Below, piece after piece: positions 18,747 to 61,207 of a DNA stretch of 64,000 nt (positions are counted from its first letter, which is position 1; each line of letters starts with the position of its first letter). The notes below the pieces were generated by a model. That model was not told the DNA's origin, made no database searches, and saw nothing but the letters and a program-made list of their open reading frames with translations. Made by a program: the position numbers and the translations under genes. The DNA is from an uncultured Gammaproteobacteria bacterium (lineage in GTDB: Bacteria > Patescibacteriota > Patescibacteriia > Buchananbacterales > UBA6539). The stretch is taken from positions 9,540 through 73,539 of the forward strand of contig CAZINP010000001.1 in the NCBI GenBank assembly GCA_964540635.1, in the 5' to 3' direction.

Positions 18747-21225
<2,479 letters not shown>

Positions 21226-21235
21226 AAATAAAACT

Positions 21236-21796
21236 ATGCCACTTGCAGATATAAACAAAGCAATAATGGCCGAGGCCGAAGAACAAATTCGCGCCATAAA
21301 AGCCGAAGGTGAAAAAAAATTGGAAGCGCTCAAGGCTGAATGGACAGAAAAGATTGCCAAACGTAAAACCGAAATTATTGCCGGTGCCCAGAGAAAAGCC
21401 AACCAAAAAATTCAGCAAATGCAATTTAAACTGCAAGCTCAATTTCAAGCCGAAACCTTAAAAGCTAAAAACGAGATTATAAATAAAGCTTACGAGCAGG
21501 CCAAAAAAACCTTAGGTGAGCTTTCCGAAAAAGAATACGAGGATTTTATGGTTAAATTGATTAAAAAAATCAATGTAACAGAAGGTGAATTAATCTCGGT
21601 GCAAGGCAAAGAAAAAATCCTCAGAAAAGCTTTGCAAAAATCTGAAAAGAAATTTACTATTTCAGAAAAAACAACAAAGGATATCGGCGGCTTTATCTTC
21701 CAATCAAATAAATTGGAAATTGACAACACTTTCTCGCGACTAATCTCTGATTTGCGAGAACAAACCGTTCTTGAAGTAACAAAAATTTTATTTTAA
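21236..21796 (+). CDS. atpE: V/A-type ATPase subunit E
   Basis: 186 aa. An N-terminal long helix (AEEQIRAIKAEGEKKLEALKAEW) and a C-terminal globular domain are present, in the expected operon position. Confidence 0.8.
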   Translation: MPLADINKAIMAEAEEQIRAIKAEGEKKLEALKAEWTEKIAKRKTEIIAGAQRKANQKIQQMQFKLQAQFQAETLKAKNEIINKAYEQAKKTLGELSEKEYEDFMVKLIKKINVTEGELISVQGKEKILRKALQKSEKKFTISEKTTKDIGGFIFQSNKLEIDNTFSRLISDLREQTVLEVTKILF

Positions 21797-21811
21797 CATC
21801 TTTTAATACCT

Positions 21812-22849
21812 ATGAAAGGCACTAATTACATCTACGCTTCCGCCAAAGTCAGGGCGCTTGAGAAAAAAATATTAGACGAAACGGACATTGAGCGCATGGT
21901 TGACGCGCCGGATTTTTTTAGTGCCTTTAAGGTACTAAACGATACTGATTTTGGCGATAATCTATTAGACTTAGATCCCTTGGATTATCGCAAAGCAATT
22001 AGCGCTGATTTTGAACAAATGCATGATCTGCTTCAAAAAATAACGCCCGAAGAAAATTTGTTTGAATTAATGTTGCTTGAAAGAGATTTCATCAATATAA
22101 AACTTTTCTTTAAGGAAAAACATTTTAAGATTAATGTGGTTGATTACGTTCGTGAAAACACTATTTACGGAAAAGATCATTTAAAAGATTTTGTTTACGA
22201 AACCCACATTCACGAGCCGGCAATTCTTGAGGCTTATGTCATGGAACAGAAAGGCCAAGTTTTAGATCAAGAAATTAAAGATGTTATTTATAGAACCGCC
22301 AAAAAAATTACGGAAAAAACCAGGCCGGATGAAATTGACGCAATGCTTACCCAAGAATACTTTGATCTTAAATTTGAGTTAGCCAAAAATACGGGCAGTC
22401 GCTTTATTGTCAATTACATTAAAATGGAAATTGATGTCAGCAATCTTTTGGTTTGGCTTCGCGCCAAAAGATTAAAGTTAAGCAAAGAGCAGTTAACTCA
22501 AAAACTTATCAAAGGCGGTCATGCTGATGTTAAGAGAATGATTCAATATTATTCTGAAGACGCCAGAAGTTTGAAGTTTTTTGTTAATGCTCATTTTGAC
22601 TTAAGAATTGTTGAAGCATACGATAATTTTTGCGAAAACGACAACTTGTTCGTATTAGAAAAAGCCTTGCAAGACTATAAAATCCGTTATGCCCAAGAAG
22701 CAAAAAGATACAGCTACGGTCCGGAAGTTTTATTTGGATATTTTTTAGCCAAACAAAACGCCAATAACAATATCAGAATTATCTTAACCGGCAAGCTCAA
22801 TAATATGCCGGCCGAAGCGATTAAACAAACAATTAGAGAAGCCTACTAA
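21812..22849 (+). CDS. atpC: V/A-type ATPase subunit C
   Basis: 345-aa helical protein in the operon position between E and F. Confidence 0.75.
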   Translation: MKGTNYIYASAKVRALEKKILDETDIERMVDAPDFFSAFKVLNDTDFGDNLLDLDPLDYRKAISADFEQMHDLLQKITPEENLFELMLLERDFINIKLFFKEKHFKINVVDYVRENTIYGKDHLKDFVYETHIHEPAILEAYVMEQKGQVLDQEIKDVIYRTAKKITEKTRPDEIDAMLTQEYFDLKFELAKNTGSRFIVNYIKMEIDVSNLLVWLRAKRLKLSKEQLTQKLIKGGHADVKRMIQYYSEDARSLKFFVNAHFDLRIVEAYDNFCENDNLFVLEKALQDYKIRYAQEAKRYSYGPEVLFGYFLAKQNANNNIRIILTGKLNNMPAEAIKQTIREAY

Positions 22850-22850
22850 T

Positions 22851-23168
22851 ATGGACTATAAAATTATTATCATCGGCAACGAAGACGCCATCACCGGCTT
22901 TAAGGCTATCGGCCTTGATACTTTTGGCGTTAAATCACAAGAAGACTGTGAAAAAAAGATTTCTGAAATATATGGCTCATCAGACTACGGCGTAATTTTT
23001 ATCACTGAGGACTGGGCCGACAAAGTAAAAATATTTTTAAGTCAATTGCCGCCCAAAGCCTTGCCGGCCATTGTTGCTGTTCCCTCTCAAGCCGGATCAA
23101 CCGGGGCCGGACTGGCTAATCTGAAAAAAATTGTTGAGCAGGCGGTGGGCTCAGATATTCTTTCTTAA
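22851..23168 (+). CDS. atpF: V/A-type ATPase subunit F
   Basis: 105 aa. IIIIGNEDAITGFKAIGLD is typical of subunit F. Confidence 0.8.
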   Translation: MDYKIIIIGNEDAITGFKAIGLDTFGVKSQEDCEKKISEIYGSSDYGVIFITEDWADKVKIFLSQLPPKALPAIVAVPSQAGSTGAGLANLKKIVEQAVGSDILS

Positions 23169-23201
23169 TTTTAAATATTAATCATAAAGATATTAAAAAA
23201 T

Positions 23202-24938
23202 ATGACTGCACAGAACGCAAAAATCATTAAAGTTTCTGGCCCACTAGTCATCGCCTCGGGAATGAAAAATGCCAAGATGTACGAAGTGGTTAAAGTTTCA
23301 GAACAAAAATTGATCGGAGAAATTATCGAACTCAAAGGCGATACCGCTTCGATTCAGGTTTACGAAGAAACCTCCGGGCTAGGACCAGGAGAACCGGTTT
23401 ACCAAACAGGCCAACCGCTATCTGTTGAACTTGGACCGGGTTTATTAAAATCAATTTATGACGGCATTCAACGTCCGCTAAACTTGATCTGCGAAAAGGC
23501 CGGCGATTTTATTACCCGCGGCATAGAAGTACCTTCTATTGATCGCCAGAAAAAATGGCGCTTTGAACCAACGGTAAAAGTTGGCGATCAGGTTGAATCT
23601 GGAGACGTCATTGGCACGGTTAAAGAAACAGAATTGATTGTCCATAAGATTATGGTTCCGTTTGGAATTTCCGGTAAGGTAGAAAAAATAAATGCCGGTG
23701 ATTTTACCGTTGTTGAACCGGTTGCCAAAGTTAACGGACACGATGTAATTATGATGCAGATTTGGCCGATTCGCCAACCACGACCAATCACAGAAAAGCT
23801 CTTACCAACCGAACCGCTTTTAACCGGCCAGCGCGTCATTGATGCTTTTTTTCCGGTTGTAAAAGGCGGAACTGCTTGCGTTCCCGGACCTTTTGGTTCA
23901 GGTAAAACCGTTGTTCAACATCAGTTGGCCAAATGGGCTGATGCAGACGTTATTTTATTTATCGGTTGCGGTGAAAGAGGCAATGAAATGACTGACGTTC
24001 TTCAGGAGTTTCCCGAATTGATTGATCCAAAATCCGGCAAACCCCTAATGGAAAGAACCGTTTTGATTGCCAACACTTCTAACATGCCGGTCGCCGCGCG
24101 TGAAGCTTCAGTTTATACCGGTATTACCATTGCTGAATATTTCAGAGATATGGGCCTTAAAGTTGCCTTAATGGGCGATTCAACCTCACGCTGGGCCGAA
24201 GCCTTAAGAGAAATGTCCGGTCGCTTGGAAGAAATGCCCGGCGAAGAAGGTTACCCGGCTTATTTGGGTTCTCGTACCGCCAGTTTTTACGAACGCGCCG
24301 GCTACGTAAAATGCTTAGGCTCCCAAGGACGCACCGGCTCACTGACTGTTATTGGTGCTGTTTCCCCTCCAGGTGGCGACCTTTCTGAACCGGTTACTCA
24401 AAACACTTTACGCGTAGTTAAAGTTTTCTGGGGCTTAGACGCTCAATTGGCTTATCGCCGCCACTTCCCCGCCATTAATTGGCTGACAAGTTATTCACTC
24501 TATTCTGATGACATTTCTGACTTTATGAGAAAAAACGCCGGTTCAGATTGGCCGGAAATGAAAACAGAAGCCATGAGCTTACTGCAGCAAGAAGCCAAGC
24601 TTGAAGAAATTGTGAGATTGGTCGGCGTTGAATCGTTATCAGCCAAAGAACAGTTAATTTTGGACACTGCTAAATCTTTACGTGAAGACTTCTTACATCA
24701 AAACGCTTTTGATGATATTGACACCTTTACATCCGCCAAAAAAATGTATTGGATGTTAAAAGCCATTTTAACTTTCCACGCCGAATCAACTGAAGCCTTG
24801 GAAAAAGGCGAAAAGTTAAAAGACTTAATTAACTTGCCGATTAAAGAAAAAATTGGCAAGGCAAAAATGGTTGAAGAAAAAAATCTCAACCAGCTAGAAA
24901 AGTTGGTTTTGGAAATTAAATCAGAAATTAACAAATAA
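23202..24938 (+). CDS. atpA: V/A-type ATPase catalytic subunit A
   Basis: Walker A GPFGSGKT is present, with non-homologous region and catalytic blocks typical of A subunits. Confidence 0.95.
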
Positions 24939-24949
24939 ATAGAATTAAT

Positions 24950-26338
24950 ATGCTTAAACAGTACAAAACCATCAAGCAAATAGCCGGCCCGCTTTTGATC
25001 GTTGAAGGCGTCAGTGACGTCAAATACGAAGAAATGGTAGAAGTTGAACTCTCAGACGGTTCAAAACGCCGCGGCCGTGTCTTGGAAATATCTCAAGACA
25101 AAGCCGTTGTCCAGATGTTTGAAGAATCTCGCGGCTTGGAAGTAGCCGGCGCTAAAGTTACTTTCCTTGGCAAAACCATGGAAGTCGGCGTAAGTAAAGA
25201 CATGCTCGGCAGAATCTTTGACGGCGCCGGCAAACCAAAAGACGGTCTGCCCAATATTATCCCCGAAAAAAAATTAGATATCAACAGCGCCCCGATTAAT
25301 CCCTACGCCAGAAATTTCCCCAACGACTTCATTCAAACCGGTATTTCCACCATTGACGGACTTAACACCTTGGTGCGCGGTCAAAAATTACCTATCTTTT
25401 CCGCTTCCGGCCTGCCCCACTCTGAATTTGCCGCTCAAATCGCCAGACAAGCCAAAGTCGCCAAACCAGACGGCACAACCGAAGGAAACTTTGCGGTTGT
25501 ATTCGCTGCCATGGGCATCACCTTTGAAGAATCAGAATTTTTTATCAACCAGTTCAAAGAAACCGGCGCTATTTCAAGGGCCGTACTTTACGTTAACTTG
25601 GCCAATGATCCGGTGGTTGAGCGTATCACCCTGCCGCGCATTGCCTTAACAACTGCCGAATATCTGGCCTTTGAACTTGATATGCACGTTTTGGTGATTT
25701 TAACTGACTTAACCAATTACTGCGAAGCCTTACGCGAAATATCCGCAGCCAGAAAAGAAATTCCTGGCCGCCGCGGTTACCCGGGCTATCTATATACCGA
25801 CCTTTCCACCATTTATGAGCGCGCCGGCAGAATTAAGGGCCGAAAAGGTTCCATTACCCAAATCCCGGTTTTAACCATGCCTGAAGACGATAAGACTCAT
25901 CCGATCCCCGACTTAACCGGTTATATTACCGAAGGTCAAATTATGCTTTCACGCGAATTGCATCGCAAAGGTATTTATCCGCCGGTTGATGTTTTACCTT
26001 CACTTTCTCGTTTAAAAGATAAGGGTATTGGCGACGGCAAAACTCGCGAAGATCACTCCGGTGTTTTAAACCAAATCTTTGCTGCCTATGCCAGGGGCAA
26101 AGAAGCCAAAGAGTTAGCTGTTATCTTGGGTGAATCAGCACTTTCCGAAGAAGATAAAAAGTTCGCCCAATTTGCCGATGCCTTTGAAAATTGCTACGTT
26201 CGCCAAGGCCGCGACCAAGACAGAAGCATTAAAGAAACTTTGGATTTAAGTTGGGACTTACTTTCAATTTTACCGCGCTCGGAACTAAAACGCGTTAAAG
26301 AAAATCACATCGAAAAATATCTTCCCAAAAAAGATTAA
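24950..26338 (+). CDS. atpB: V/A-type ATPase subunit B
   Basis: 462 aa. The blocks are homologous to the non-catalytic B subunit (no P-loop lysine context, [16 protein letters not shown]). Confidence 0.9.
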
Positions 26339-26366
26339 ACCAAACGATAAATAACCATCAATTTTT

Positions 26367-26996
26367 GTGGCTAATAAACTCAACGTCAATCCAACCCGCC
26401 AAGAATTGCTTAAGCTTAAAGTCAAGCTTAAGACGATTCAGCGCGGTCATAAATTGCTCAAAGAAAAGCGAGACGGGCTGATGAAAAATTTCATGGCAAT
26501 CATTCGTCAAGCAAAAACTTTGCGAGAACAAATTGAACAAGACTTGGGCAAAGGTTTTTTCTCCTATGTTTTTTTCTCTTCAAAAATTCCAATGTCTGTT
26601 ATTAACGAATCATTGGCAGTCCCAACCAAAAAAGTAAGCTTGCAGGCTAAAACCAGAAATGTCATGGGTGTGGAAGTGCCGGAATTCGTTTACCAAGAAA
26701 ATGGTGATTTTATGTGTTATGATTTAGTTACCACCTCAACCAGTTTGGACAAAGCTTTAATCACTTTTTCGGAAGCGATAAAAAACATGGTTAAGCTAGC
26801 TGAAATTGAACACTCCGCAAAACTTTTGGCAACGGAAATTGAAAAAACCAGAAGGCGCGTTAATGCTTTGGAATATGTTTACATTCCCGATACGATTGAA
26901 ACTATCAAATATATCACCAGTAAACTCAACGAACAAGAACGAGGAACAATAATCACCTTAATGAAGGTCAAAGAATTAATCGCCGCTCAAGAATAA
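26367..26996 (+). CDS. atpD: V/A-type ATPase central stalk subunit D
   Basis: GTG start. Long coiled-coil helices (NPTRQELLKLKVKLKTIQRGHKLLKEKRDGL) are typical of subunit D. Confidence 0.8.
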   Translation: MANKLNVNPTRQELLKLKVKLKTIQRGHKLLKEKRDGLMKNFMAIIRQAKTLREQIEQDLGKGFFSYVFFSSKIPMSVINESLAVPTKKVSLQAKTRNVMGVEVPEFVYQENGDFMCYDLVTTSTSLDKALITFSEAIKNMVKLAEIEHSAKLLATEIEKTRRRVNALEYVYIPDTIETIKYITSKLNEQERGTIITLMKVKELIAAQE

Positions 26997-39544: not shown

Positions 39545-39621
39545 GCGCCTGTAGCTCAGTTGGTTAGAGCGCCACCCTTATAAGGTGGATGTCCCTGGTT
39601 CAAGTCCAGGCAGGCGCACCA
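39545..39621 (+). tRNA. tRNA-Ile, anticodon UAU (gene TAT)
   Basis: 77 nt cloverleaf with a 7-bp acceptor (GCGCCTG/CAGGCGC), anticodon stem CCACC/GGTGG, loop C-T-TAT-A-A and 3' CCA encoded. Confidence 0.8.
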
Positions 39622-39863: not shown

Positions 39864-40187
39864 TTGATATATATGAAACATAAATGTTGTTGCAATAAAT
39901 CGGATTTGCTGAATTTGAATAATTTGGCCGATTTCCTAAAAATTATTGCCGAACCAAACCGCTTAAAAATTTTATGCTTGCTGAAAAACGACAAGCGCTG
40001 TGTTTGTGAAATATGGCAAGCTTTAAATTTACCGCAAAATTTAATTTCAAGTCATTTAAAGATCTTGCGACAAGCCAAACTTATTGATTTTAAAAAAGAC
40101 GGTTTAAAAGTCTATTACTTTATCAATAAACAAAATATCAAAAAGCATAAATCATTATTAAATAAATTATTAAAATCATATGAATGA
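39864..40187 (+). CDS. ArsR/SmtB-family transcriptional regulator
   Basis: ArsR-type HTH (NRLKILCLLKNDKRCVCEIWQALNLPQNLISSHLKILRQAKLI). An N-terminal Cys cluster is present. Confidence 0.8.
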   Translation: MIYMKHKCCCNKSDLLNLNNLADFLKIIAEPNRLKILCLLKNDKRCVCEIWQALNLPQNLISSHLKILRQAKLIDFKKDGLKVYYFINKQNIKKHKSLLNKLLKSYE

Positions 40188-40488
40188 AAAAATTCAAAAA
40201 ATCCAAGTCTTGGGCGCCGGCTGCCCCAGCTGCAAAAAAATGTTTGAACTAACCAAACAAACCGCCCTTGAACTTGGCTTGAAAATTGAAGTTGAATATA
40301 TTACCGATATTACCGTGTTGGTTAAAATGGGTGTAATGTCCGCTCCGGCTTTGGCCATAAATGATAAATTGGTTTTTGCCGGCGCCTTGCCCAACAGTCA
40401 AAGAATAAAAGAACTGATTCAAAATTACGCCTTAAAACAAGAAGTTGAGAAGCCAAAGAGTAATTGTTCTTGCCACGGTTGTTGCTAA
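40180..40488 (+). CDS. Thioredoxin-fold 'redox-active disulfide protein 2' family protein
   Basis: IQVLGAGCPSCKKMFEL has a CxxC motif and follows the TIGR00412-like pattern. A C-terminal CSCHGCC tail is present. Confidence 0.7.
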   Translation: MNEKIQKIQVLGAGCPSCKKMFELTKQTALELGLKIEVEYITDITVLVKMGVMSAPALAINDKLVFAGALPNSQRIKELIQNYALKQEVEKPKSNCSCHGCC

Positions 40489-40495
40489 AAATTGT

Positions 40496-41467
40496 ATGGA
40501 TATTTTTTTTCCCCTTCAATCATTTGCCGATCTTTTTGTTTATAATCTTTTAGGTTTGAGCAAAGACTCCCATTTGGGCGAGGCTTTAAATTATTTTATT
40601 TATGATGTCATAAAAATAATCATCCTGCTTTTGATTGTTAATTATTTTATGGCAATTATAAGACACTATTTACCGGCCGAAAGACTGCGCAATTTTTTGG
40701 CTTCTCGGCGCTGGTTTGGATTTGACTATTTACTGGCCGCCTTATTTGGCACCATCACTCCTTTTTGTTCCTGTTCATCCATTCCCCTATTTATCGGTTT
40801 TATCAGTGCCGGCATTCCTTTGGGCGTGACTTTGTCATTCTTAATCACCTCGCCGCTGGTTAATGAGATAGCCATTGTACTTTTAATCGGATTGTTCGGC
40901 TGGAAAATTACTTTATACTATGTACTTGCCGCCATTGCTCTTGGCGTTTTGGGCGGTATGATTTTGAACAGATTAAAATTGGAAAAATACGTAGCCGAAG
41001 AGATTTGGAAAATCAAAAGTCAAAAACAAGAATTAATGATTGACAAGCTTAACCTAAAAACTTTGCTTAAAAAATTTTGGTCCGAGGGCTTTGAAATTAC
41101 CAAAAAAATAACACCTTATGTTATCTTGGGCATTGGGGCGGGTGCAGTCATACACGGTTTTGTTCCAAGCGGATTTTTTGAAAAATATCTCAATTCACAA
41201 AACTTATTAGCCGTTCCCGTGGCGGTTTTGGTGGGAGTGCCCCTGTATGCCGGCGCCGTGGGTGTAATTCCAATCGTTCAATCTCTGGTGGATAAAGGCG
41301 TGGCTTTAGGCACAGCCTTGGCTCTAATGATGGCCGTCGTCGGCCTATCGCTACCGGAAGCTTTAATTTTAAAAAAAGTAATGAAGCTGAAATTGCTTTT
41401 ATATTTTTTTGGCATCACCACCATCAATATAATTATTATCGGTTATTTATTTAACGCTTTAGCTTAA
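40496..41467 (+). CDS. DUF318/ArsP-like permease with TPFCSCSS motif
   Basis: A polytopic permease. TPFCSCSSIP is the hallmark of the COG0701/ArsP family. The start is taken at the ATG after the upstream stop. Confidence 0.7.
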   Translation: MDIFFPLQSFADLFVYNLLGLSKDSHLGEALNYFIYDVIKIIILLLIVNYFMAIIRHYLPAERLRNFLASRRWFGFDYLLAALFGTITPFCSCSSIPLFIGFISAGIPLGVTLSFLITSPLVNEIAIVLLIGLFGWKITLYYVLAAIALGVLGGMILNRLKLEKYVAEEIWKIKSQKQELMIDKLNLKTLLKKFWSEGFEITKKITPYVILGIGAGAVIHGFVPSGFFEKYLNSQNLLAVPVAVLVGVPLYAGAVGVIPIVQSLVDKGVALGTALALMMAVVGLSLPEALILKKVMKLKLLLYFFGITTINIIIIGYLFNALA

Positions 41468-41471
41468 AAAA

Positions 41472-41951
41472 ATGAAAAAAGAAATACTTATCGGCTCTGC
41501 CATTGGCACCACTTTAGTCATTATTATCGGCTTTGTTTTGATTTTACTTTCCTCTTTGGGGAATGAAGCAAAAAATAATCAAAATGATTTCGATCTTACT
41601 CAGAATCAAAACGCTCCCGCGGAAAAAATAGAAATTATTCACTTTCACGCAGCCCAGCAATGTTGGTCGTGCATTACCGTAGGCAATTATACCCTAAAAA
41701 CCATCCAAGAAAAATTTCCGGAAGAATACCAATCCGGAAAAATCACTTTCACCGATATTAACGTTGAATCACCTGAAAATAAAAATGTGGTTTTGAAATT
41801 TCGTGCCGCAGGATCATCCCTTTTTATCAATACCATTAGAGACGGTAAAGATAATATTTCCGAGGAAGTAACGGTTTGGCGTTTGGTTAATAATGAAAAA
41901 CAATTTATTGATTATTTTGAAAATAAAATTAAATCTTTATTGGGCAAATAA
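41472..41951 (+). CDS. Membrane-anchored thioredoxin-like CxxC protein
   Basis: An N-terminal transmembrane anchor is followed by a thioredoxin-like fold with a CWSC motif (HFHAAQQCWSCITVGN). Confidence 0.5.
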   Translation: MKKEILIGSAIGTTLVIIIGFVLILLSSLGNEAKNNQNDFDLTQNQNAPAEKIEIIHFHAAQQCWSCITVGNYTLKTIQEKFPEEYQSGKITFTDINVESPENKNVVLKFRAAGSSLFINTIRDGKDNISEEVTVWRLVNNEKQFIDYFENKIKSLLGK

Positions 41952-42674
41952 ATGGAAATCATTAATTTTTTAATTGATAATTACAACCTTCCGGCCTTAA
42001 GCGCCTTTTTACTTGGCATACTAACGGCCATCAGCCCTTGTCCTTTAGCAACCAATATTACAGCCATTGCCTATATTTCAAAAGAAATTAATAATACAAA
42101 AAAAATAATTCTCTCCGGGCTAACTTATACTCTGGGCCGAGCCATCACCTACACCCTTTTGGCCGTTTTATTGTTTTTCGGACTATCGTCCTTTGAAATG
42201 TCCAGACTGTTTCAAGGCTGGGGAAACAAAATCTTAGGTCCAATCTTGATTTTTATCGGCTTGGTTATGTTCGGGATAATAAAAATAAAAACAGGTAACC
42301 AAAATCAACGGCTGGAAAAAATTAAAACATGGTTGGCCCAAAAGGGTTATTTGGGTTCAATGCTTTTAGGTGGATTTTTCGCTTTGGCTTTCTGCCCCTA
42401 CAGCGCAGTTTTATTTTTTGGCGCACTTATGCCCATTGTTCTGAAATCAAACGGCGGTCTTTTACTGCCGATTGTTTTTGCCCTTGGAACCGGCTTACCT
42501 GTTATTGTTTTTGCCATTTTAATCGCTTACAGCCTGCAAAAAATGGGTAAGGTTTTCAAAGTTTTAACTGAATTGGAAAAATGGATTCGTTTTGCTATAG
42601 CTTTGATTTTTATTTTAATTGGAATTTATTATTCGCAAAATTTGTTTGATTATCTGTTGAAAATAATTTTATGA
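41952..42674 (+). CDS. ccdA: CcdA/DsbD-family cytochrome-c-biogenesis-type thiol-disulfide transporter
   Basis: Six transmembrane helices with ISPCPLATN and FCPYSAVLFFG Cys motifs. Confidence 0.8.
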   Translation: MEIINFLIDNYNLPALSAFLLGILTAISPCPLATNITAIAYISKEINNTKKIILSGLTYTLGRAITYTLLAVLLFFGLSSFEMSRLFQGWGNKILGPILIFIGLVMFGIIKIKTGNQNQRLEKIKTWLAQKGYLGSMLLGGFFALAFCPYSAVLFFGALMPIVLKSNGGLLLPIVFALGTGLPVIVFAILIAYSLQKMGKVFKVLTELEKWIRFAIALIFILIGIYYSQNLFDYLLKIIL

Positions 42675-43048
42675 ATACTAAAAAATTAATCATTGTCTGG
42701 CAACGACTTATTGTAAATGAAAAAACTGGCTTTCGCTGCGGCGCTACTGAAACCGAACTTTAAAAAGCCGTCAAACAACTTAAAAAGAAAATTAGTCCGA
42801 TGGGAATAGAGGTGATTCTAAAAAAATCAAAACTTGCACTAAAAAAATTTGAAAATAATCCGACAGAATCAAACAAAATCACAATAAATGACATACCATT
42901 GGAAAAATTAATTAATGCCAAAACCAAAACAAGCAGGTGCTGCGGCGCATGCAATGGCAATGAGTGTCGTACAATGGTAATAGACGGTCAATCTCAAGAA
43001 GTGATTAAAGCCGATGTGATAATTAAGGCGGGACTGAAAGCTTTATAG
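42671..43048 (+). pseudogene. DUF2703-like small CxxC protein interrupted by in-frame TAA at 42761-42763
   Basis: The full frame reads MNTKKLIIVWQRLIVNEKTGFRCGATETEL-*-KAVKQLKKKISPMGIEVILKK...SRCCGACNGNECRTMVIDGQ...ADVIIKAGLKAL. This matches DUF2703 (KKLxIxWQRLV...CPRCG...IEV...CC..C....CR.....G.....IPADVIIKAGL). The first Cys of CPRC is lost (GFRC). The ATG overlaps the ccdA stop (ATGA). Confidence 0.6.
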
Positions 43049-43074
43049 TTAAAATAATTTAAAAAAATAAAAAA

Positions 43075-43108
43075 GCGAGCGCTCGGCGTGAGGCTCGCCA
43101 CTGTTTTT
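43075..43108 (+). terminator. Rho-independent terminator
   Basis: The hairpin GCGAGC...GCTCGC is followed by CACTGTTTTT. Confidence 0.45.
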
Positions 43109-43128
43109 CACAAAGATCTTACCAGCCC

Positions 43129-44289
43129 CTACTCGGGCTGAATTTCAATCACTTCGCCACCGCCAAACTTGGAGTGGATTAAAACCGAAGGATTACGACC
43201 GGCTGGCGTGGGCAGAATCTTGCCGGCCACTTTTGCGGTTACACCAAACTTCACTGCCAAATGGCAGAATTGCGCAACGTCAGACTCATCAATGACAACC
43301 AGCATTCCCTGGCCGCAATTCCAGGTGTCGTAGCAGTCATTTACGGACATGCCACGCCAATCAGCGCAAAGCCGAACGATCTCCGGCGGCTCGAAAAGGT
43401 CGTCCAATATCGCCGAGAAACCCTGGGGAAAAAGAACGTCGCGGGCAAATTTGCTCTTGATTGAGCCGCCGGTAACGTGAGCAATCAAGTGCATCCTAAC
43501 CAGCGGCAGAAAGTCGGCTTCATACCAGCCGTGAAGCTTAGTCAAAAAGCAATCATACAAGAATGAGGGCACGGCAGCCGAACGAAGATGCTCCTTTGCC
43601 TCCGGCTCAATGGCCCAATTGTCGCCGAAACGCTTGGCAAAAGCTTTGCGCACAGAGCTGATGCCGTTGCTGCGAAACCCATTCTCTTGCAGAGCCACGA
43701 CAACTTGTCCGGGCGCCAAAGTGTCACCGAGAATCATTTTGTCCGGGTGGTAGGCACCGATTGCAAACCCGGACCAATTGTATTTTGCCGTAGCCGCCTC
43801 ATTGCTGGAACCAACACACACGCCAAGCTCGGCGGTTTCACCGCAAAGCATGACCATTTGGTTGTTGCCGCAAGCCACCATCAGGCCGTTAATCAACTGC
43901 CGAAAAGCCTGATTGGTTTGGTCTCCGGCTTGGCCAAGGGTGCAGACGTCCAAAACATTGCAGAAAACCAGAGGTATGCCACCCCAGCGCGTAATGTCAC
44001 CGGCCGTCATGGCCAGCACGTCTTTTCCGGAAGCAAAATGAAACCCTGCGGCATCAGAAATTATCACTTTGGTTCCGATTCCGTCCGGCGCACACGCCAA
44101 GCTACTGCCGGGCAGTAGGCCCTCAACGGTAAATCCACGAGGCCCGCGGAAGTGGCCACGAGAAAAATCATGGATCTTAACAAACGGGCTTGCCTCATAA
44201 GTTCCGCGGCAACACTTTGCCGCAAAGGCGCTAAAGCTATCGCCTTCTTTTACGTTTACACCATCCCGGGTGTAGGGATCATTGCTCAT
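43129..44289 (-). CDS. PurM-like (AIR synthase family) protein, GC-rich cassette
   Basis: PYTRDGVNV, DGIGTKV, CGETAE, SNGISSVRK, IAHVTGG and NCGQGM align to the PurM blocks. GC is about 55% in a roughly 40% GC genome. The start is taken at M28 of the track ORF. Confidence 0.7.
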   Translation of the reverse strand: MSNDPYTRDGVNVKEGDSFSAFAAKCCRGTYEASPFVKIHDFSRGHFRGPRGFTVEGLLPGSSLACAPDGIGTKVIISDAAGFHFASGKDVLAMTAGDITRWGGIPLVFCNVLDVCTLGQAGDQTNQAFRQLINGLMVACGNNQMVMLCGETAELGVCVGSSNEAATAKYNWSGFAIGAYHPDKMILGDTLAPGQVVVALQENGFRSNGISSVRKAFAKRFGDNWAIEPEAKEHLRSAAVPSFLYDCFLTKLHGWYEADFLPLVRMHLIAHVTGGSIKSKFARDVLFPQGFSAILDDLFEPPEIVRLCADWRGMSVNDCYDTWNCGQGMLVVIDESDVAQFCHLAVKFGVTAKVAGKILPTPAGRNPSVLIHSKFGGGEVIEIQPE

Positions 44290-44500
44290 TGTTTTCTCCT
44301 TTTCTGTAGTAGACAACACCGCCCACTTTTCTGGAAACAACCACCAAACGTTCTTTTTGAAGAGCCTCAATCGCTCTTTCCACCTCCTGGTGAGTACAAA
44401 AACCCAATGAGGCCGTTAGCGATCGCTTAAGAGCACAAACATTGCAGTCGCTGCTGTGCTCCAAAATCTTCAAAACTTCACCCTGTACATCCCTAGACAT
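44279..44500 (-). CDS. Small winged-helix-like protein, translationally coupled to the PurM-like gene
   Basis: 73 aa from the ATG at 44500, preceded by AAGGAAAGGAAA. The GC-rich part begins exactly here. The stop overlaps the PurM-like ATG (ATGAGCAATGA). Confidence 0.45.
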   Translation of the reverse strand: MSRDVQGEVLKILEHSSDCNVCALKRSLTASLGFCTHQEVERAIEALQKERLVVVSRKVGGVVYYRKGENNEQ

Positions 44501-44620
44501 GAAAGTTTCCTTTCCTTGAGTTTTCAAAAAAGCGAAGCCTTCAAAAAATTGTCGGCTTGACGCCTTTATCTTATATATAATAAAGTGGCTTGTCAAATAA
44601 ATTTATGCTAAAATAAAACC

Positions 44621-46093
44621 ATGAAAACCAACTACGAAAAATCGTTTAAATTGTGGGAAAAACAGCCCTTTTTGAAGCGGCTTTTTTCTAAATATCCGAA
44701 AGCCAAGGCTTATTTGGTTGGCGGCGCCGTGCGCGATGCGATCCTAGAGAAACCAACAAAAGATTATGACTTTGTTATCGCCGGCCTGGAACCAAAGCTG
44801 TTGGAAAAATTTTTGCTTACCCAGGGCAAGGTTAATTTGGTTGGCAAACACTTTGGGGTTTTTAAATTTAAACCCAAGGGCTGGCAAGGGGAAGAAATTG
44901 ATATCGCCCTGCCACGAACCGAACACTCCATTGCTTTCAGCGGCGCTTACAAAGATTTTCTTGTTACCAGCGATCCCAATCTTAAAATAGAAGACGATCT
45001 TTCTCGTCGGGATTTTACAATTAATGCCACGGCTTGGGATTTGAAAGAAAAAAAATTGATTGATCCGTTTGGCGGCCTAAAAGATTTGCAAGGCGGAATT
45101 GTCAAAACTGTTGGCAAGCCCCAGGACAGATTTAAAGAAGATTACTCTCGCATGCTTCGCGCAATTCGTTTTGCCTGTCAACTTAATTTTGAAATTGAAA
45201 CCAGAACCTGGAGTGCCATTAAAAAAAATATAAAAAATTTAAACAAAAAAACCGGCGGCCAAAGAATCGTACCCCTTGAAGTGATTGCCAAAGAATTAAA
45301 CAAAGCTATAATCAATAATCCGATTTGGGCCATAGAACTCTTAGATCAAACCAAGACTATTGATCTGTTTTTCCCCGAACTGCTTAAGCAAAAAAAATGC
45401 CCTCAACCAAAAATTTTTCACAGCGAAGGTGATGCTTGGGCGCATATGATTATTGCTCTAGAAACCCTTTTTAGTAAAAATTTTACCAAAGAGTTTAAAA
45501 ACCAAAAGCCCACCCCTGAGGTTATTTGGGCAGTAATGTTTCATGATATCGGCAAGCCGTTTACCCTAACCATGTCAGATCGTATTCGTTTTAACAATCA
45601 CGACAATGTTTCCGTTAAACTTTGGCAAAAAATTTCAGACGACCTAAGGTTGTCTTCGGCCGGCCTAGACACCGATAAGGTTAAAAACTTAATTGGTAAA
45701 CACATGCTAACGATTCAGTCTCAGGTGATAAATATGAAAGATACCACCTTGGAAAAATACTTTTTTAACCCGCTTTTTCCGGGCGACGAATTAATGATGG
45801 TAATGTTTGCCGATATTTCCGCCACCATTCCGCCGTCAAACAAACCGGATTTTACCAGCTACAATCTACTTAAAAAAAGAATTGAAAAGCTGGGCCGTCA
45901 AGGAAAAAATAAAAAAACTTTGCCCAAGCCCTTTGTTGATGGCCACGATTTAATTAAAAATTTCAAACTTAAATCTAGCCCCCAGATTGGAATAATCCTA
46001 GAAATGCTGCGTGAGGCCCAATTGGCCCAAAAGATAAAAAATAAAACTCAAGGCTTAAAGTATGCCGGCCGATTTATTAAGAAAATCAAATGA
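44621..46093 (+). CDS. cca: CCA-adding tRNA nucleotidyltransferase with HD domain
   Basis: PolyA_pol head motif YLVGGAVRD and HD-domain motif MFHDIGKP are present. Confidence 0.8.
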   Translation: MKTNYEKSFKLWEKQPFLKRLFSKYPKAKAYLVGGAVRDAILEKPTKDYDFVIAGLEPKLLEKFLLTQGKVNLVGKHFGVFKFKPKGWQGEEIDIALPRTEHSIAFSGAYKDFLVTSDPNLKIEDDLSRRDFTINATAWDLKEKKLIDPFGGLKDLQGGIVKTVGKPQDRFKEDYSRMLRAIRFACQLNFEIETRTWSAIKKNIKNLNKKTGGQRIVPLEVIAKELNKAIINNPIWAIELLDQTKTIDLFFPELLKQKKCPQPKIFHSEGDAWAHMIIALETLFSKNFTKEFKNQKPTPEVIWAVMFHDIGKPFTLTMSDRIRFNNHDNVSVKLWQKISDDLRLSSAGLDTDKVKNLIGKHMLTIQSQVINMKDTTLEKYFFNPLFPGDELMMVMFADISATIPPSNKPDFTSYNLLKKRIEKLGRQGKNKKTLPKPFVDGHDLIKNFKLKSSPQIGIILEMLREAQLAQKIKNKTQGLKYAGRFIKKIK

Positions 46094-52049: not shown

Positions 52050-52877
52050 TTAAAAGCATCGCCAATTTTTCAAATGAACATCAACTTCTTGACCGAAACC
52101 GGCCGTTTTCACGTCTTCCAGGGCCGACAAAACGTGAAGAGCATGGGTGCCAAAACGCTCAACTCGATCCTCCTTGTTCGAAGGCGAGTATTCACGATTA
52201 AGCAAACCCAATTCACTGTGATTTTGGTAGATGGCCGGATGCGGCACTTCTACCACTTCTACCGAACCGCCCTCAAAGAGGTAAGAAAGCTTGACCAGCC
52301 CCTCAAGGCAAGTGCCGTAGCGTTCAAGCTTGAGCTCGTGTCCCAAGAAACTTGCAACCAACGCCGGCATAGCCCAGAAACCACTTAAAGGATCAGTGAT
52401 GTCTTTCCATTTTGTTACTGAACGGATGATCGCCGTAAAAGCAACGTTGAGCAAATCGCGGTCAAGGGGCGTGCCATAGCGTTCAGATTCGGGGTGATAG
52501 CGCGAACCGATCACCAAACGAGGCAAATCATCAACACGCAAGCGCGCCAGGATCGGTTCAAGCAAATTGACGTCGTGCTGACCATCAGAATCCATGGTGA
52601 CCAGATAGTCATAACCTTGCTTAACCGTACGCTCATACAGGCGTCGCAGCGAATAGCCCAAGCCGATGTTGCCATTGTTTGAAAGCAGCTTGACCCTATC
52701 GCCAAAAGACAAGACCACATCTTGAGTGTCGTCGTTTGAACCGTCATCGACGACGCAGACATCAAACTCAAGATCTTTGATCGTGCTAGTCACCGCCAGC
52801 AAACGCGGCAAAAAAACTTTCAGGGAAGTTCCCTCATTGCAGGCCGGAACGCCTATCAGACAAACTTTTTTTCTCAT
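52050..52877 (-). CDS. GT2-family glycosyltransferase (DPM1/polyprenol-phosphate glycosyltransferase-like), GC-rich
   Basis: PACNEG, VVDDGSNDDT and TMDSDGQHD (DxD) are present. GC is about 50% against a roughly 40% background. Confidence 0.75.
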   Translation of the reverse strand: MRKKVCLIGVPACNEGTSLKVFLPRLLAVTSTIKDLEFDVCVVDDGSNDDTQDVVLSFGDRVKLLSNNGNIGLGYSLRRLYERTVKQGYDYLVTMDSDGQHDVNLLEPILARLRVDDLPRLVIGSRYHPESERYGTPLDRDLLNVAFTAIIRSVTKWKDITDPLSGFWAMPALVASFLGHELKLERYGTCLEGLVKLSYLFEGGSVEVVEVPHPAIYQNHSELGLLNREYSPSNKEDRVERFGTHALHVLSALEDVKTAGFGQEVDVHLKNWRCF

Positions 52878-57283: not shown

Positions 57284-58129
57284 CTAAACCAAGCCCCGGT
57301 AGGTTTTCAACCAATCGATAATTCCTTCGCAGAAATAATCAATTGACAATGGATGGAAAAACGCGTTGGGGCAGATGTTCAGATCAATGACCTGATCGCC
57401 GATAAACTCAACGCACATAAACTCACAGCCAAATTCACGTACAAGCAAATCAACTGTTCTCTGATGAGAAGCCAAAGTGTCAGGTACAAGTTTTTTGGGC
57501 TGTCTCAAGGACGGTTCCACGCAAAAAGCGTCAGATTTTAAAGCCGTAAAAACATGGCCAAAAACCCAATAGACTGTTCGCGTCACTTGTTCAGGGTTGG
57601 CTAAAACTTCCTGATAAAACCCCAACTCATCAAATGAGTGAATCCGCTTCGGGTCAACAATGTTGACTAAGTGGCCGTTGTTGGCCTTTTGAACGACCTG
57701 AGGCCCAAGCTCGCTAGGGATACTCCCCGGGTATCCAAAATACCAACGGGGCTGTTTGACCTGAAGTTGATCAAGGAAAGAACAAACCCCGACTCGATCA
57801 AGCAGCCTCTCGGTCAAAACCGGCGAGTTCATCACTTTAATCCCGGCATACTCCAAGGCCAGCATCGGGCTGTCCCACTCGTTGGGCTTACCAACGTGAA
57901 AATACAGCGCCAAGTCGGGCCGTTCGTATTTTCCCCAGCTTGAAATTCTCAAGCACTGAGCAAATTCCTTGGCACTCTGAGGCCGAATTACTTGCACCCC
58001 TCTTTCAATCAGGGCTTGAGCAATTTTTTCTATTTCCCCGCGAACATCGCTGGGCAGGTCAACAATCAAGACTTTGCACATATGAAGTCCTCCATGTACT
58101 GGTTGAAAATTTTGGGTTTGAAAGACCAA
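57284..58129 (-). CDS. ATP-grasp-like protein (tentative), GC-elevated
   Basis: The C-terminal VEFIGDQVIDLNICPNAFF resembles the ATP-grasp E-x-N...P block. GC is about 46%. The alternative start M17 is at 58081. A minus-strand terminator lies at 57270-57300. Confidence 0.35.
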   Translation of the reverse strand: MVFQTQNFQPVHGGLHMCKVLIVDLPSDVRGEIEKIAQALIERGVQVIRPQSAKEFAQCLRISSWGKYERPDLALYFHVGKPNEWDSPMLALEYAGIKVMNSPVLTERLLDRVGVCSFLDQLQVKQPRWYFGYPGSIPSELGPQVVQKANNGHLVNIVDPKRIHSFDELGFYQEVLANPEQVTRTVYWVFGHVFTALKSDAFCVEPSLRQPKKLVPDTLASHQRTVDLLVREFGCEFMCVEFIGDQVIDLNICPNAFFHPLSIDYFCEGIIDWLKTYRGLV

Positions 58130-60049: not shown

Positions 60050-60700
60050 TTAAAGCAATTGCTTGAGAATGTCCACGGTTTCATTCCTCCCCCCAGAAAC
60101 AACCACTGCACCCATATAACCGGCATTAAGCGCCGGCTGACAATCAGTATGAAAACGATTGCCAATGCTGATGCAGTCTCGCGATCGGGTTTTGGCCAAG
60201 TAAGAGGCGGCCAAGAAAAAATTCGGATCAGGTTTATAGAAATTAACCATGTCTGTTGCCATAAAACGGCAACCAATTTCTTCGGGAATAATTCCCAAAA
60301 GGCCCAAAATCTTTCGGCCGAGCTTTTCCGGAGAATTCGTGGCAAAAACCAACGAAAATGACCTTGCGGCCAACAAAATAACATCAACCAACTCTTGATC
60401 CCGCACCAGAAAAAGCTCCGGGCACAAACGGTTGCGCAGACCATTCCACTCCCGGGCATTAATCCCCAGGGAAATAACCGTTTCGGTCAAAGCAAACTTT
60501 CGGCCGTAACGAAGCTTAAGCGCTTCTTTTCTTTTCTTGACAACCACGGCCGCTTCCTCCGAAGTTAAGTCAAGCAACTCGGCAATACCGCTAAACTTCA
60601 TTTCTTTCCAATGCGCGGTATATTCCGGGCAATTATAGCAAGTGTCATCGACATCAATGACAATGGTACTTGCGTTTTCCAAAGAGCCGATAATCTCCAT
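60050..60700 (-). CDS. HAD-superfamily hydrolase
   Basis: Motif I is IVIDVDDTCYN (DxDxT). Size and fold are consistent with HAD phosphatases. Confidence 0.55.
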   Translation of the reverse strand: MEIIGSLENASTIVIDVDDTCYNCPEYTAHWKEMKFSGIAELLDLTSEEAAVVVKKRKEALKLRYGRKFALTETVISLGINAREWNGLRNRLCPELFLVRDQELVDVILLAARSFSLVFATNSPEKLGRKILGLLGIIPEEIGCRFMATDMVNFYKPDPNFFLAASYLAKTRSRDCISIGNRFHTDCQPALNAGYMGAVVVSGGRNETVDILKQLL

Positions 60701-60790
60701 CTGATTACTCCTGTCAGGTTGGGTTTCAAAAATAAATTATAGCAAAATATCTTTAAAAATCAAAATAAAAAACCGAACGCGGGGTCGGGG

Positions 60791-61207
60791 TTATTTCAAA
60801 AGAGCATCAACGATTTTTTGGAATTCCGAAATCGGATGTTCGCTATCAAGACCAATAATCGTGACGCCAAGCTTTTCCAGTTCGGCCAAAAGGTCGGGAT
60901 TTTTTGTCACCGAAAGCGAAATCAGATGTGCGCTTTTGGGTGTTAAAAACTCACCTTGCCTGAGCCGACGAATAAGCCTGAGTCCGGGGGCGCGCCTTTC
61001 GAGGCTGTCAAAAGTCAAGATTTCAGCGCCCACGTTCATACTGCACAAAGGGTCAATCACAAATAAGTCATAGGCTTTTGTTTGCAATGACCGCAAGGCA
61101 TCGGCGTAATACCGGGTTTCCGAAACCGGATAACCTGCTTCTTTGAGCCGGTCAATGTGAAAATGACTGCCGTAGTCAGTGTAGGATAAAATTTCCTTAG
61201 CAGACAT
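60791..61207 (-). CDS. Receiver-like (divergent CheY-fold) protein, tentative
   Basis: YDLFVIDPLCSMNVGAEILTFDSLERR...ISLSVTKNPDLLAELEKLG follows a REC beta3-alpha3...beta5 pattern. The N-terminal acidic pocket is not canonical. Confidence 0.3.
   Translation of the reverse strand: MSAKEILSYTDYGSHFHIDRLKEAGYPVSETRYYADALRSLQTKAYDLFVIDPLCSMNVGAEILTFDSLERRAPGLRLIRRLRQGEFLTPKSAHLISLSVTKNPDLLAELEKLGVTIIGLDSEHPISEFQKIVDALLK

Follow-up and report, generated by a model that had tools for sequence, protein, structure and literature searches.

The cassette examined here lies on the minus strand of the window, the 64-kb stretch of DNA that was analyzed, and comprises a PurM-like coding sequence, a small upstream ORF, and their putative expression signals (Table 1). 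The string ATGAGCAATGA is present at the junction of the two reading frames, so the small ORF and the PurM gene overlap by 11 nt, bearing out the overlapping stop and start described in an earlier note on this DNA. The PurM gene carries its own Shine-Dalgarno sequence (AAGGAG, 44301-44296) 6 nt ahead of its ATG, and its start at 44289 is backed by the N-termini in the family alignment. This arrangement of overlap and AAGGAG would allow translational coupling of the two frames. The small ORF is also called as a gene on a Logan contig.

Table 1. Features of the small ORF/PurM cassette (window coordinates)
Feature	Position	Strand	Remarks
PurM (Patescibacteria-type, AIR synthetase family)	43129..44289	minus	386 aa; ATG 44289-44287, TAG 43131-43129; GC 0.537, GC3 0.587; direct reading
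73-aa small ORF, possibly winged-helix-like	44279..44500	minus	ATG 44500-44498, TGA 44281-44279; GC just 0.45; ORF list and direct reading; no homolog
Purine-rich Shine-Dalgarno-like run AAGGAAAGGAAA	44506..44517	minus	5 nt 5′ of the small-ORF ATG; direct reading
Small-ORF stop/PurM start overlap ATGAGCAATGA	44279..44289	minus	11 nt; direct reading
Sigma-70-like promoter TTGACA-17 nt-TAAGAT	44568..44596	minus	consensus match only, 10/12
Terminator-like hairpin (GGCGAGCCUC...GAG.CGCUCGC) followed by UUUUUUAUUUUUUU	43061..43099	minus	in MFE and centroid folds

The promoter-like site is placed in the AT-rich stretch that separates the cassette from the divergently oriented CCA-adding-enzyme gene, a region holding three promoter-like sites compared with 1.4 ± 1.4 in shuffled sequences. 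The segment containing the terminator-like hairpin has a whole-segment z-score of -0.44, which is not significant, and a terminator scan did not pick the hairpin up. An Rfam E-value scan of the 5′ leader (44200-44700) returned no riboswitch or known RNA, with nothing below E 1.9, and a gathering scan of the whole window returned rRNA and tRNA only. The cassette probably forms a two-ORF transcription unit in which a sigma-70-like promoter, a 73-codon ORF, the overlapping 386-aa gene, and a hairpin with a U-run terminator follow one another.

The 73-aa ORF carries a C19-x-x-C22 pair and an additional cysteine, C35. Zero homologs were found among 5.8 billion proteins and no counterpart in any of 84 loci, so the small ORF and PurM are not a conserved unit; the genes 5′ of PurM vary from locus to locus. 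The coupled regulator-like partner suggested by the earlier note is thus not supported, no homologous small ORF having appeared anywhere searched when conservation of the pair was checked. The ORF has no Pfam or NCBIfam match below E 0.07 and no wHTH family among its Pfam matches; its best wHTH profile matches (ArsR/SmtB, E 0.075; HutC, E 0.085) are not significant, and a marginal PHROG match is Ren-like (E 0.001, 20 bits). A single-sequence AF2 model of low pLDDT (58) places H5-15, H21-32, H37-49, E52-54, and E65-67, and a Foldseek search with this low-confidence model returns mostly winged-helix domains (Fur, KAT6A WH, F-93, histone H1, BlaI; best E 0.1). A winged-helix fold is plausible but unproven: the note's description of the ORF as winged-helix-like agrees, at low confidence, with the H-H-H-E-E pattern but not with the profile searches. 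Two other candidates were rejected. A PurS or other pur-associated protein is contradicted by the lack of Pfam/NCBIfam matches and of similarity to ORFs near PurM in the loci, and a decayed upstream gene of a donor by a blastx search of 44251-44650 against 1529 locus ORFs, which gave self-matches only. The ORF is probably an addition specific to its lineage that might encode a small DNA-binding protein or be no more than a translated leader; it is not a conserved functional partner of PurM.

The larger frame is a full-length PurM-family gene, as first described. It has the two-domain architecture of canonical PurM (E. coli, PDB 1CLI and 9JZW; TIGR00878; EC 6.3.3.1), with AIRS (PF00586, 24.3 bits; cutoff 24) and AIRS_C (PF02769, 32.2 bits; cutoff 23.1) matched in Pfam. 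The match to TIGR00878 (E 8.8e-35, 120.5 bits) falls below the equivalog cutoff of 236.35 bits. Ten family members, operon-embedded as well as lone, score 88-139 bits, so the shortfall is a property of the whole family. No NCBIfam model besides purM matched the window PurM; a few of its relatives show trace matches to methanogenesis-marker-2 and SelD only. Its 18 best PDB sequence matches are AIR synthetases without exception (E 6e-22 to 9e-14). The AF2 model (pLDDT 94.3, pTM 0.92) retrieves AIR synthetases at ranks 1-31 of a Foldseek search of the PDB (E 3.5e-25 to 9e-18, target TM up to 0.87), with canonical PurM as the best match (E 3.5e-25, target TM 0.85). The Dx4GxxP motif and the ATP-binding fold also occur in SelD, ThiL, HypE, and the PurL core, but these come up only at about 1e-12 (TM 0.43-0.63), and the E-value lead of AIR synthetases over SelD, ThiL, and HypE is 13 orders of magnitude. 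The putative PurMs of Bacteroidetes type (3KIZ, Cytophaga hutchinsonii; 3MDO, Parabacteroides distasonis) are likewise longer (~390 aa) and divergent and also adopt this fold (E about 1e-20 in Foldseek), but their sequence similarity to the window PurM is marginal (phmmer E 0.0066) and their TM of 0.67-0.70 is lower than that to canonical PurM. A phage origin was also considered and rejected: the PHROG phage-PurM match (87 bits) is below that of the cellular PurM model, and there are no phage genes nearby.

Compared with canonical PurM, the window protein is ~40 residues longer and 20-25% identical, with motifs DGxGTK (G2), Dx4G(A/G)xP (M1), GETAE, SNG...RK, and H-x-T/S-G-G (His247 equivalent) in common. 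It retains 82 of the 86 columns conserved at 90% or more in its family and all 42 invariant positions of a 32-sequence family alignment. The proposed active-site residues Asp65, Asp94, and His247 in E. coli numbering (PMC3261824) correspond to D69, D98, and H271, which are invariant in 78/78 family sequences. So are the G2 (GVGTK) and M1 (Dx4GAxP) motifs of PurM (PMC2978367), here D69-G-I-G-T-K and D98-ITRW-G-G-I-P, the latter with GA replaced by GG. Two further sites differ. His190, a proposed catalytic residue (human His620) reported as 100% conserved in archaeal PurMs (PMC3261824), aligns to R206 in PDB alignments (G-F-R-S-N-G versus G-x-H-S-N-G), with Arg at this site in 77/78 sequences of the family. 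Near the N-terminus, where PurM has a glycine-rich G1 loop (E. coli GGLGGFGA; PMC2978367) thought to bind ATP, both subclades carry an invariant F47-R48-G49-P50-R51 instead, within a G-(H/N)-F-R-G-P-R consensus. The window gene is an intact copy of a divergent Patescibacteria form of PurM.

This form corresponds to the "AIR synthase-related protein" family in NCBI/JGI MAG naming (Moran-, Sung-, Nomura-, and Paceibacterota, among others). The window PurM has 866 homologs at 47-57% identity over the full length; none but itself is closer than 57%, and the overlapping 73-aa ORF upstream is unique to it. The family is large and confined to Patescibacteria as far as names tell: the source names among the matches listed, and 74 of 80 related-locus titles, are Patescibacteria/CPR lineages or a bare "bacterium"; the other six titles name Gammaproteobacteria, Lysobacteraceae, or "uncultured bacterium," with at least one of these (L005) on a Buchananbacteria-like contig. 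About 40 of the 78 loci have complete purF-purQ/L-purN-purD-purE-[PurM]-purC-purB operons in which a family member stands where purM is expected, the same position between purE and purC as canonical PurM, and no second PurM is present in these operons. Neighbor clustering across the 78 loci places purE directly upstream in 35 and purC directly downstream in 31, while purL, purB, purD, purN, purQ, and purF are each found at 23-33 loci, in every case on the same strand; the gene labels of operon neighbors were confirmed by NCBIfam. The non-canonical function suggested by the earlier note is at odds with this placement. Because His190 is replaced by Arg (R206) and the G1 loop by FRGPR, we infer a probable AIR synthetase activity of the window PurM from the operon slot of its family rather than from its residues.

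Members of the window PurM's subclade are lone or adjoin purL, purN, or purD; purH-PurM, PurM-purK, purF, and purQ linkages also occur. In this subclade, PurM is lone at 14 loci whose flanks exceed 4 kb on either side and at another 11 on short contigs, so a PurM gene standing by itself is less surprising than first supposed. Three syntenic Staskawiczbacteria loci carry purH with PurM, purL with PurM, or PurM alone in the same slot. In a neighbor-joining (NJ) tree, the window PurM is sister to that of L005 (PurM-purN-purL), followed by those of L013 and L026 (purD-PurM...purL and PurM-purN-purL), all from the broad lineage to which the host belongs. The host is Buchananbacteria-like by ValRS, and relatives of this ValRS are present on the L005 and L013 contigs. 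This grouping with PurMs that adjoin purN, purL, or purD in Buchananbacteria-like relatives also counts against the earlier proposal of a non-canonical function, and it supplies one half of what the earlier note named as refuting that proposal, the clustering with PurMs of related organisms. The absence of purine-biosynthesis neighbors in the window was confirmed: tblastn of Patescibacteria purE, L, B, C, D, N, Q, F, K, A, and H, guaA, and guaB against the 64 kb gave no hit at E ≤ 1e-3. No hyp, sel, or thi neighbors lie by the window PurM.

The window has a GC content of 38%, and its 56 ORFs average 0.390 in GC (SD 0.052) and 0.387 in GC3 (SD 0.068). The PurM CDS (GC1 0.579, GC2 0.447) ranks first of the 56 in both measures, about 2.8 SD above the mean, with GC shifted upward at all three codon positions, so the claim of a composition foreign to the surrounding DNA holds. 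The amino-acid usage follows the same trend (GARP 0.295 and FYMINK 0.238 versus 0.191 and 0.352 in neighboring proteins). The GC-rich cassette spans ~1.4 kb, with sharp boundaries that coincide with the cassette promoter and terminator. GC is 0.33 at 44500-44599 and 0.47 at 44400-44499 and exceeds 0.5 only within PurM; the switch from AT-rich to GC-rich that had been placed exactly at the small-ORF ATG is therefore real but stepwise, not a single jump. Other GC-enriched ORFs in the window (ParB-like, GT2, HAD, and others) reach 0.46-0.50, making the cassette the most extreme compositional outlier but not the sole one.

AIR synthetase catalyzes step 5 of de novo purine synthesis, converting FGAM and ATP to AIR, ADP, and Pi. 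The explanation we favor, with moderate confidence, is that an intact PurM of Patescibacteria lineage acts as the host's AIR synthetase, that its GC richness stems from lateral acquisition or replacement, and that the small ORF is a lineage-specific addition. As an intact copy of a form common in Patescibacteria, the gene probably has an ordinary function, and only its origin is probably unusual. The remaining pur genes would lie dispersed at other genomic sites, as they do in other subclade members; since no pur or gua gene was found in the 64 kb searched, a functioning pathway in the host is assumed. In one survey, ~32% of CPR MAGs encode complete de novo IMP synthesis (PMC11608272). GC richness at all three codon positions and GARP-rich amino-acid usage point to a lateral origin, in which a Patescibacterium of higher GC, probably another member of the Buchananbacteria-like lineage, would have donated the gene as a new acquisition or a replacement. 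No integrase or flanking repeats are present at the cassette. Direct and inverted repeats considered as insertion scars occur at chance level only; the best 12-nt inverted pair (43101-43112/44654-44665) has its second arm within the CCA gene. In a check for an empty site, the closest CCA-enzyme relative in the metagenome scan is 51% identical, and relatives whose CCA enzyme is 46-51% identical retain CCA-RluD-Gmk-L19 with no PurM upstream. In the 77% ValRS relative, synteny is lost just past the DHH gene, and the contig of the 87% relative ends there, before the cassette position.

The origin, and only that part of the explanation, is contested by vertical inheritance, a possibility we hold in some doubt, whereby subclade PurMs and the adjacent purL, purN, purD, and purH intrinsically stay GC-richer than their genomes, which drift toward AT, for reasons such as expression-linked codon choice or constraint. 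The lone/early subclade PurMs are systematically GC-richer than their hosts (mean offset +0.073, SD 0.046), gene GC tracks host GC across the 32 loci with usable flanks (r 0.68, slope 0.68), and the pur genes adjoining these PurMs have the same offset. The closest PurM relatives (L005, L013, L026) come from genomes near the host by ValRS too, and the missing mobility signatures fit this account as well. However, the window copy is an extreme case: its offset over the host, +0.164, is the second-largest among the 32 loci and 2 SD over even the subclade mean, while the family's operon clade stands at -0.002, essentially zero. The window housekeeping genes show no excess (ValRS 0.40, TyrRS 0.365, CCA enzyme 0.39), PurM differs from the ORF average in GC3 (0.587 versus 0.387) and is shifted at every codon position, and the GC boundaries match the cassette promoter and terminator. 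The window ValRS has relatives at 87, 77, 74, and 72% identity, yet no PurM above 57% was found.

Lateral acquisition of a working enzyme also has to be set against an orphan remnant, in which the pathway has eroded and PurM is a leftover, or has arrived recently without a pathway, and is inert or uses host-scavenged intermediates. The empty 64-kb neighborhood and the pur content that varies around a kept PurM at the three Staskawiczbacteria loci agree with such a remnant, as does the absence of de novo nucleotide synthesis from many Patescibacteria (PMC11809585). We consider this unlikely. The PurM ORF is full-length, retains 82/86 conserved positions, and has a strong SD and its own predicted promoter and terminator; 64 kb is a mere fraction of the genome, and subclade members are linked to purF, purD, purN, purL, purQ, purK, or purH. 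Use of scavenged intermediates would also need FGAM uptake, which is not known to occur.

More speculatively, and with little confidence, pur genes (PurM with purL, purN, purD, or purH) could be variable GC-rich islets in AT-rich Patescibacteria of Paceibacteria type, traded piecemeal by symbionts that re-assemble or erode the pathway gene by gene, with the window cassette, promoter to terminator and with its unique leader ORF, as a freshly arrived module; His190-to-Arg and FRGPR might further mark a mechanistically distinct AIR synthetase. Least probable is a neofunctionalized PurM-superfamily enzyme with a non-FGAM substrate, acquired horizontally with a dedicated winged-helix regulator, for although the sub-cutoff TIGR00878 score, the altered His190 and G1 sites, the lone position in the window, and the winged-helix-like pattern and CxxC pair of the upstream ORF would suit it, the same oddities of the enzyme recur in 77/78 family members, including the sole PurMs of complete pur operons, the small ORF lacks any homolog and so forms no conserved enzyme-regulator pair, the neighbors point to no other pathway, and the fold is nearest that of AIR synthetases by the E-value lead given above.

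For the window itself, the outcome is modest: one ordinary enzyme gene of unusual composition and a small ORF found nowhere else. Judged by operon position, the "AIR synthase-related protein" that fails the purM equivalog cutoff is almost certainly the working PurM of a large share of Patescibacteria, which matters when one estimates how many such reduced organisms can make their own purines. GC-rich pur genes in AT-rich genomes hint at a patchy, possibly inter-lineage-exchanged nucleotide biosynthesis in symbionts, and the same hint comes from the purH, purL, or no companion found beside PurM at one chromosomal slot.

The cassette, on the minus strand of the window, comprises a 73-codon ORF (the small ORF) and a 386-codon PurM-family gene (the large gene). 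An earlier note had the stop of the former overlapping the start of the latter, and the overlap measures 11 nt (ATGAGCAATGA). Given this overlap, a promoter-like site, and a GC-rich hairpin followed by UUUUUUAUUUUUUU, the pair has the appearance of a self-contained unit running from promoter to terminator. It is flanked by a convergent DUF2703 gene on one side and a divergent CCA-RluD-Gmk-L19 block on the other, and Rfam scans of its leader returned no riboswitch or other Rfam family. Adjoining it at 39900-43048 is a cluster of normal composition (ArsR-type HTH, thioredoxin-like, ArsP permease, 159-aa ORF, DsbD-like, DUF2703), missing at the matching position in L092, the locus of a 77% ValRS relative.

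Positions of the cassette elements, of further GC-enriched ORFs, and of features in three Staskawiczbacteria loci
Feature	Locus	Position	Strand	Remark
Small ORF, 73 codons	window	ATG 44500 to TGA 44279	minus	read from sequence
Large gene, 386 codons	window	ATG 44289 to TAG 43129	minus	read from sequence
AAGGAAAGGAAA	window	44517-44506		5 nt ahead of small-ORF ATG
AAGGAG	window	44301-44296		6 nt ahead of large-gene ATG
Promoter-like site TTGACA-17-TAAGAT	window	44596-44568		AT-rich spacer, common to divergent CCA-adding-enzyme gene
GC-rich hairpin then UUUUUUAUUUUUUU	window	43099-43061		directly past large-gene stop
Other GC-enriched ORFs	window	8540-10274; 52050-52877; 57284-58129; 60050-61207		
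Variable pur slot	L036	8147-11128		
Variable pur slot	L038	5994-11128		
Variable pur slot	L044	9980-11146		
Two-tier hairpin	L036	9903-9950		35-40 nt upstream of PurM start
Two-tier hairpin	L038	9907-9954		35-40 nt upstream of PurM start
Two-tier hairpin	L044	9909-9958		35-40 nt upstream of PurM start

Pfam detects AIRS and AIRS_C in the large-gene protein, both barely over threshold, and its sole NCBIfam match is TIGR00878 purM (8.8e-35), at 120.5 bits far under the 236-bit equivalog cutoff. In a PDB sequence search, AIR synthetases fill the top 18 places (E 6e-22 to 9e-14). An AlphaFold2 model built from a 32-sequence alignment (pLDDT 94.3, pTM 0.92) retrieves AIR synthetase chains at ranks 1-31 of a Foldseek search against the PDB (E 3.5e-25 to 9e-18, target TM up to 0.87), with selenophosphate synthetase, PurL, ThiL, and HypE following at ~1e-12.

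A search of 5.8 billion proteins returned 866 homologs, the best non-self match being 57% identical; where given, their names are Moran-, Sung-, Nomura-, or Paceibacterota, or "Patescibacteria group". A pattern scan with one genome per species yielded 80 loci, mostly titled Patescibacteria MAGs, with a handful titled Gammaproteobacteria, Lysobacteraceae, or just "bacterium". Loci L005, L064, L073, and L077 carry a Patescibacteria-type PurM on contigs titled "uncultured Gammaproteobacteria" or "Lysobacteraceae", probably through mislabelling or bin contamination; the L005 contig additionally bears a Buchananbacteria-like ValRS.

Operon context provides the decisive evidence. ORFs were called in 82 loci, 78 of them with a full-length PurM, and the 1529 products were clustered and mapped relative to PurM. 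The frequent neighbour clusters all lie on the same strand, with purE directly upstream (35 loci), purC directly downstream (31 loci), and purL (33), purB (32), purD (30), purN (28), purQ (27), purF (23), purK (12), purA (10), purH (8), guaA (7), and guaB (6) nearby. NCBIfam confirmed purE, L, B, C, D, N, Q, F, K, and H, of which purE, B, C, D, F, K, Q, and H exceed equivalog cutoffs; the purA, guaA, and guaB labels come from sequence alone. The usual order is purF-purN-purD-(purK)-purE-[PurM homolog]-purC-purB, and purL and purQ lie upstream. Because the homologs occupy this position and these operons hold no other PurM, the window's family is the PurM of the pur operons. The large-gene protein is a genuine member of this Patescibacteria lineage. 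Against TIGR00878, operon-embedded members score 129-139 bits and those of the window's subclade 88-132; scoring below the threshold is common to the family and does not mark out the window's copy. The earlier idea of a non-canonical enzyme with a coupled regulator finds no backing: many members of the family are operon PurMs, and the fold predicted for the window's copy is nearest AIR synthetases.

Residue roles in E. coli PurM have been described for Asp65, Asp94, His190, and His247 (PMC3261824), and PurM motifs comprise G1 (GGLGGFGA), G2 (GVGTK), and M1 (Dx4GAxP), with His620 and His680 in the human protein (PMC2978367). Across the 78 family sequences, D69-G-x-G-T-K, D98-x4-G-G-x-P, and H271 are invariant. 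The His190/His620 position, where His190 is proposed to be catalytic, is Arg (R206) in 77 of 78, and the G1 loop (glycine-rich, ATP) is swapped for an invariant F-R-G-P-R (F47-R51). Both changes occur in both subclades, operon-embedded members included, and as family-wide features are mildly interesting. The window's copy keeps 82 of the 86 columns conserved at ≥90% (family median 97.7%) and is intact; its function is most likely ordinary AIR synthetase activity.

A neighbour-joining tree of the 78 proteins comprises two groups. Members of the first (43 loci) are nearly all embedded in full pur operons, and their PurM GC equals that of the flanks (offset -0.002, sd 0.026, from the 41 loci whose flanks were usable). 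The second (35 loci), which includes the window, contains no full pur operon: 14 loci have "early" neighbours only (purL, purN, purD, purQ, or purF), two have purH or purK, 14 are lone with >4 kb of flank on each side, and most of the remainder are lone on short contigs. A lone PurM, earlier called unexpected, is thus paralleled in those 14 well-flanked loci. Second-group PurM is GC-richer than its flanks (mean +0.073, sd 0.046; 32 loci), with a median within-locus z-score of +1.7 and top rank in 12 of 31 loci, and the excess is also present in adjoining pur genes. The window's offset of +0.164 lies ~2 sd over this mean and is the second-largest residual. Such foreign composition, which pur genes throughout the lone/early subclade show in weaker form, is a further point of mild interest. 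L005 (PurM-purN-purL) is the sister of the window's PurM, and L013 and L026 (purD-PurM...purL and PurM-purN-purL) come next.

Within the window (38.4% GC), the GC-rich segment claimed earlier holds up: the large gene ranks top of 56 ORFs in both GC (0.537; mean 0.390, sd 0.052) and GC3 (0.587; mean 0.387, sd 0.068), with a shift at all three codon positions, and its protein is GARP-rich (0.295 vs 0.191 in neighbouring proteins) and FYMINK-poor (0.238 vs 0.352). The small ORF is intermediate (0.45), and the 100-nt GC profile climbs from 0.33 upstream of its ATG to 0.47 within it and 0.50-0.60 in the large gene. The large gene is the most extreme compositional outlier, not the sole one: a ParB-like protein with an adjoining ORF, a GT2 glycosyltransferase, a 281-aa ORF, and a HAD hydrolase with a 138-aa ORF reach 0.46-0.50 and could likewise be foreign. 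The window also encodes a complete V/A-type ATPase operon (18747-26996; subunits I, c, E, C, A, B, D by Pfam), in which the A, B, and c subunit genes are moderately GC-enriched (0.44-0.48).

Lateral acquisition of the cassette from a GC-richer Patescibacterium is favoured, because GC3 is shifted, the boundaries are sharp, and housekeeping genes of the window are normal in composition. Vertical descent, with the GC excess not a transfer signal, is the less likely origin. Relatives of the window ValRS are 87, 77, 74, and 72% identical to it, and several bear the name Candidatus Buchananbacteria. Since the L005 and L013 contigs bear ValRS relatives (~69-70%), the tree neighbours of the window's PurM belong to the host's broad lineage, which fits vertical descent or within-lineage transfer alike. 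No PurM closer than 57% was found in the database, though ValRS relatives reach 72-87%; on contigs of the close ValRS relatives, the sequence or the synteny stops immediately past the DHH gene, short of where the cassette would lie. In more distant relatives, whose CCA enzyme is 46-51% identical, the CCA-RluD-Gmk-L19 block is retained but the genes upstream of it are unrelated. No insertion scars were found around the cassette.

Three syntenic Staskawiczbacteria loci (L036, L038, and L044) share an identical set of AT-rich flanking genes around purH+PurM (GC 0.57, 0.55), purL+PurM (0.53, 0.53), or PurM alone (0.51), the pur genes spanning 0.51-0.57 vs 0.31-0.42 in the flanks. Thus, pur content beside a retained PurM varies at a fixed chromosomal slot, and one state that such an islet can take is PurM by itself. 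Only these three loci, and not the window, carry a conserved two-tier hairpin of ~50 nt (CACCUGAAA...AUCCGAA..UUCGGAU...UUUCAGGUG plus a U-run), which may be a terminator or attenuator; it matches no Rfam family and displays no covariation across the three sequences.

The small ORF has no homolog among 5.8 billion proteins, no tblastn or blastx match in 84 loci, and no Pfam or NCBIfam profile match better than E 0.07; a PHROG "Ren-like" match is marginal (E 0.001, 20 bits). The winged helix-PurM pair, whose recurrence was checked in these searches, is not seen elsewhere, and the genes upstream of PurM change from one locus to another; the small ORF is not a conserved PurM partner. A winged helix is a plausible prediction for its putative product, given a single-sequence AlphaFold2 model with a helix-helix-helix-strand-strand order (pLDDT only 58) and mostly winged-helix Foldseek matches (best E only 0.1). 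This unique leader ORF is likewise mildly interesting. The sole locus with a recognisable regulator adjoining PurM is L029 (Falkowbacteria), where a divergent MarR-like 134-aa ORF (9426-9830, minus strand) lies directly upstream of PurM-purL.

The absence of purine-biosynthesis neighbours, claimed earlier, is borne out within the 64-kb window: 13 pur and gua families, six Patescibacteria representatives each, gave no tblastn match. Complete de novo IMP synthesis occurs in about 32% of 399 surveyed CPR MAGs (PMC11608272), and other Patescibacteria are without it (PMC11809585). An OMP decarboxylase/HUMPS-family protein (70-753; Pfam 2.7e-18) is the sole other nucleotide-related enzyme among the ORFs examined. 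At 39545-39621, adjoining tRNA-Val(GAC), the window encodes a tRNA-Ile with a UAU anticodon, which is uncommon among bacteria.
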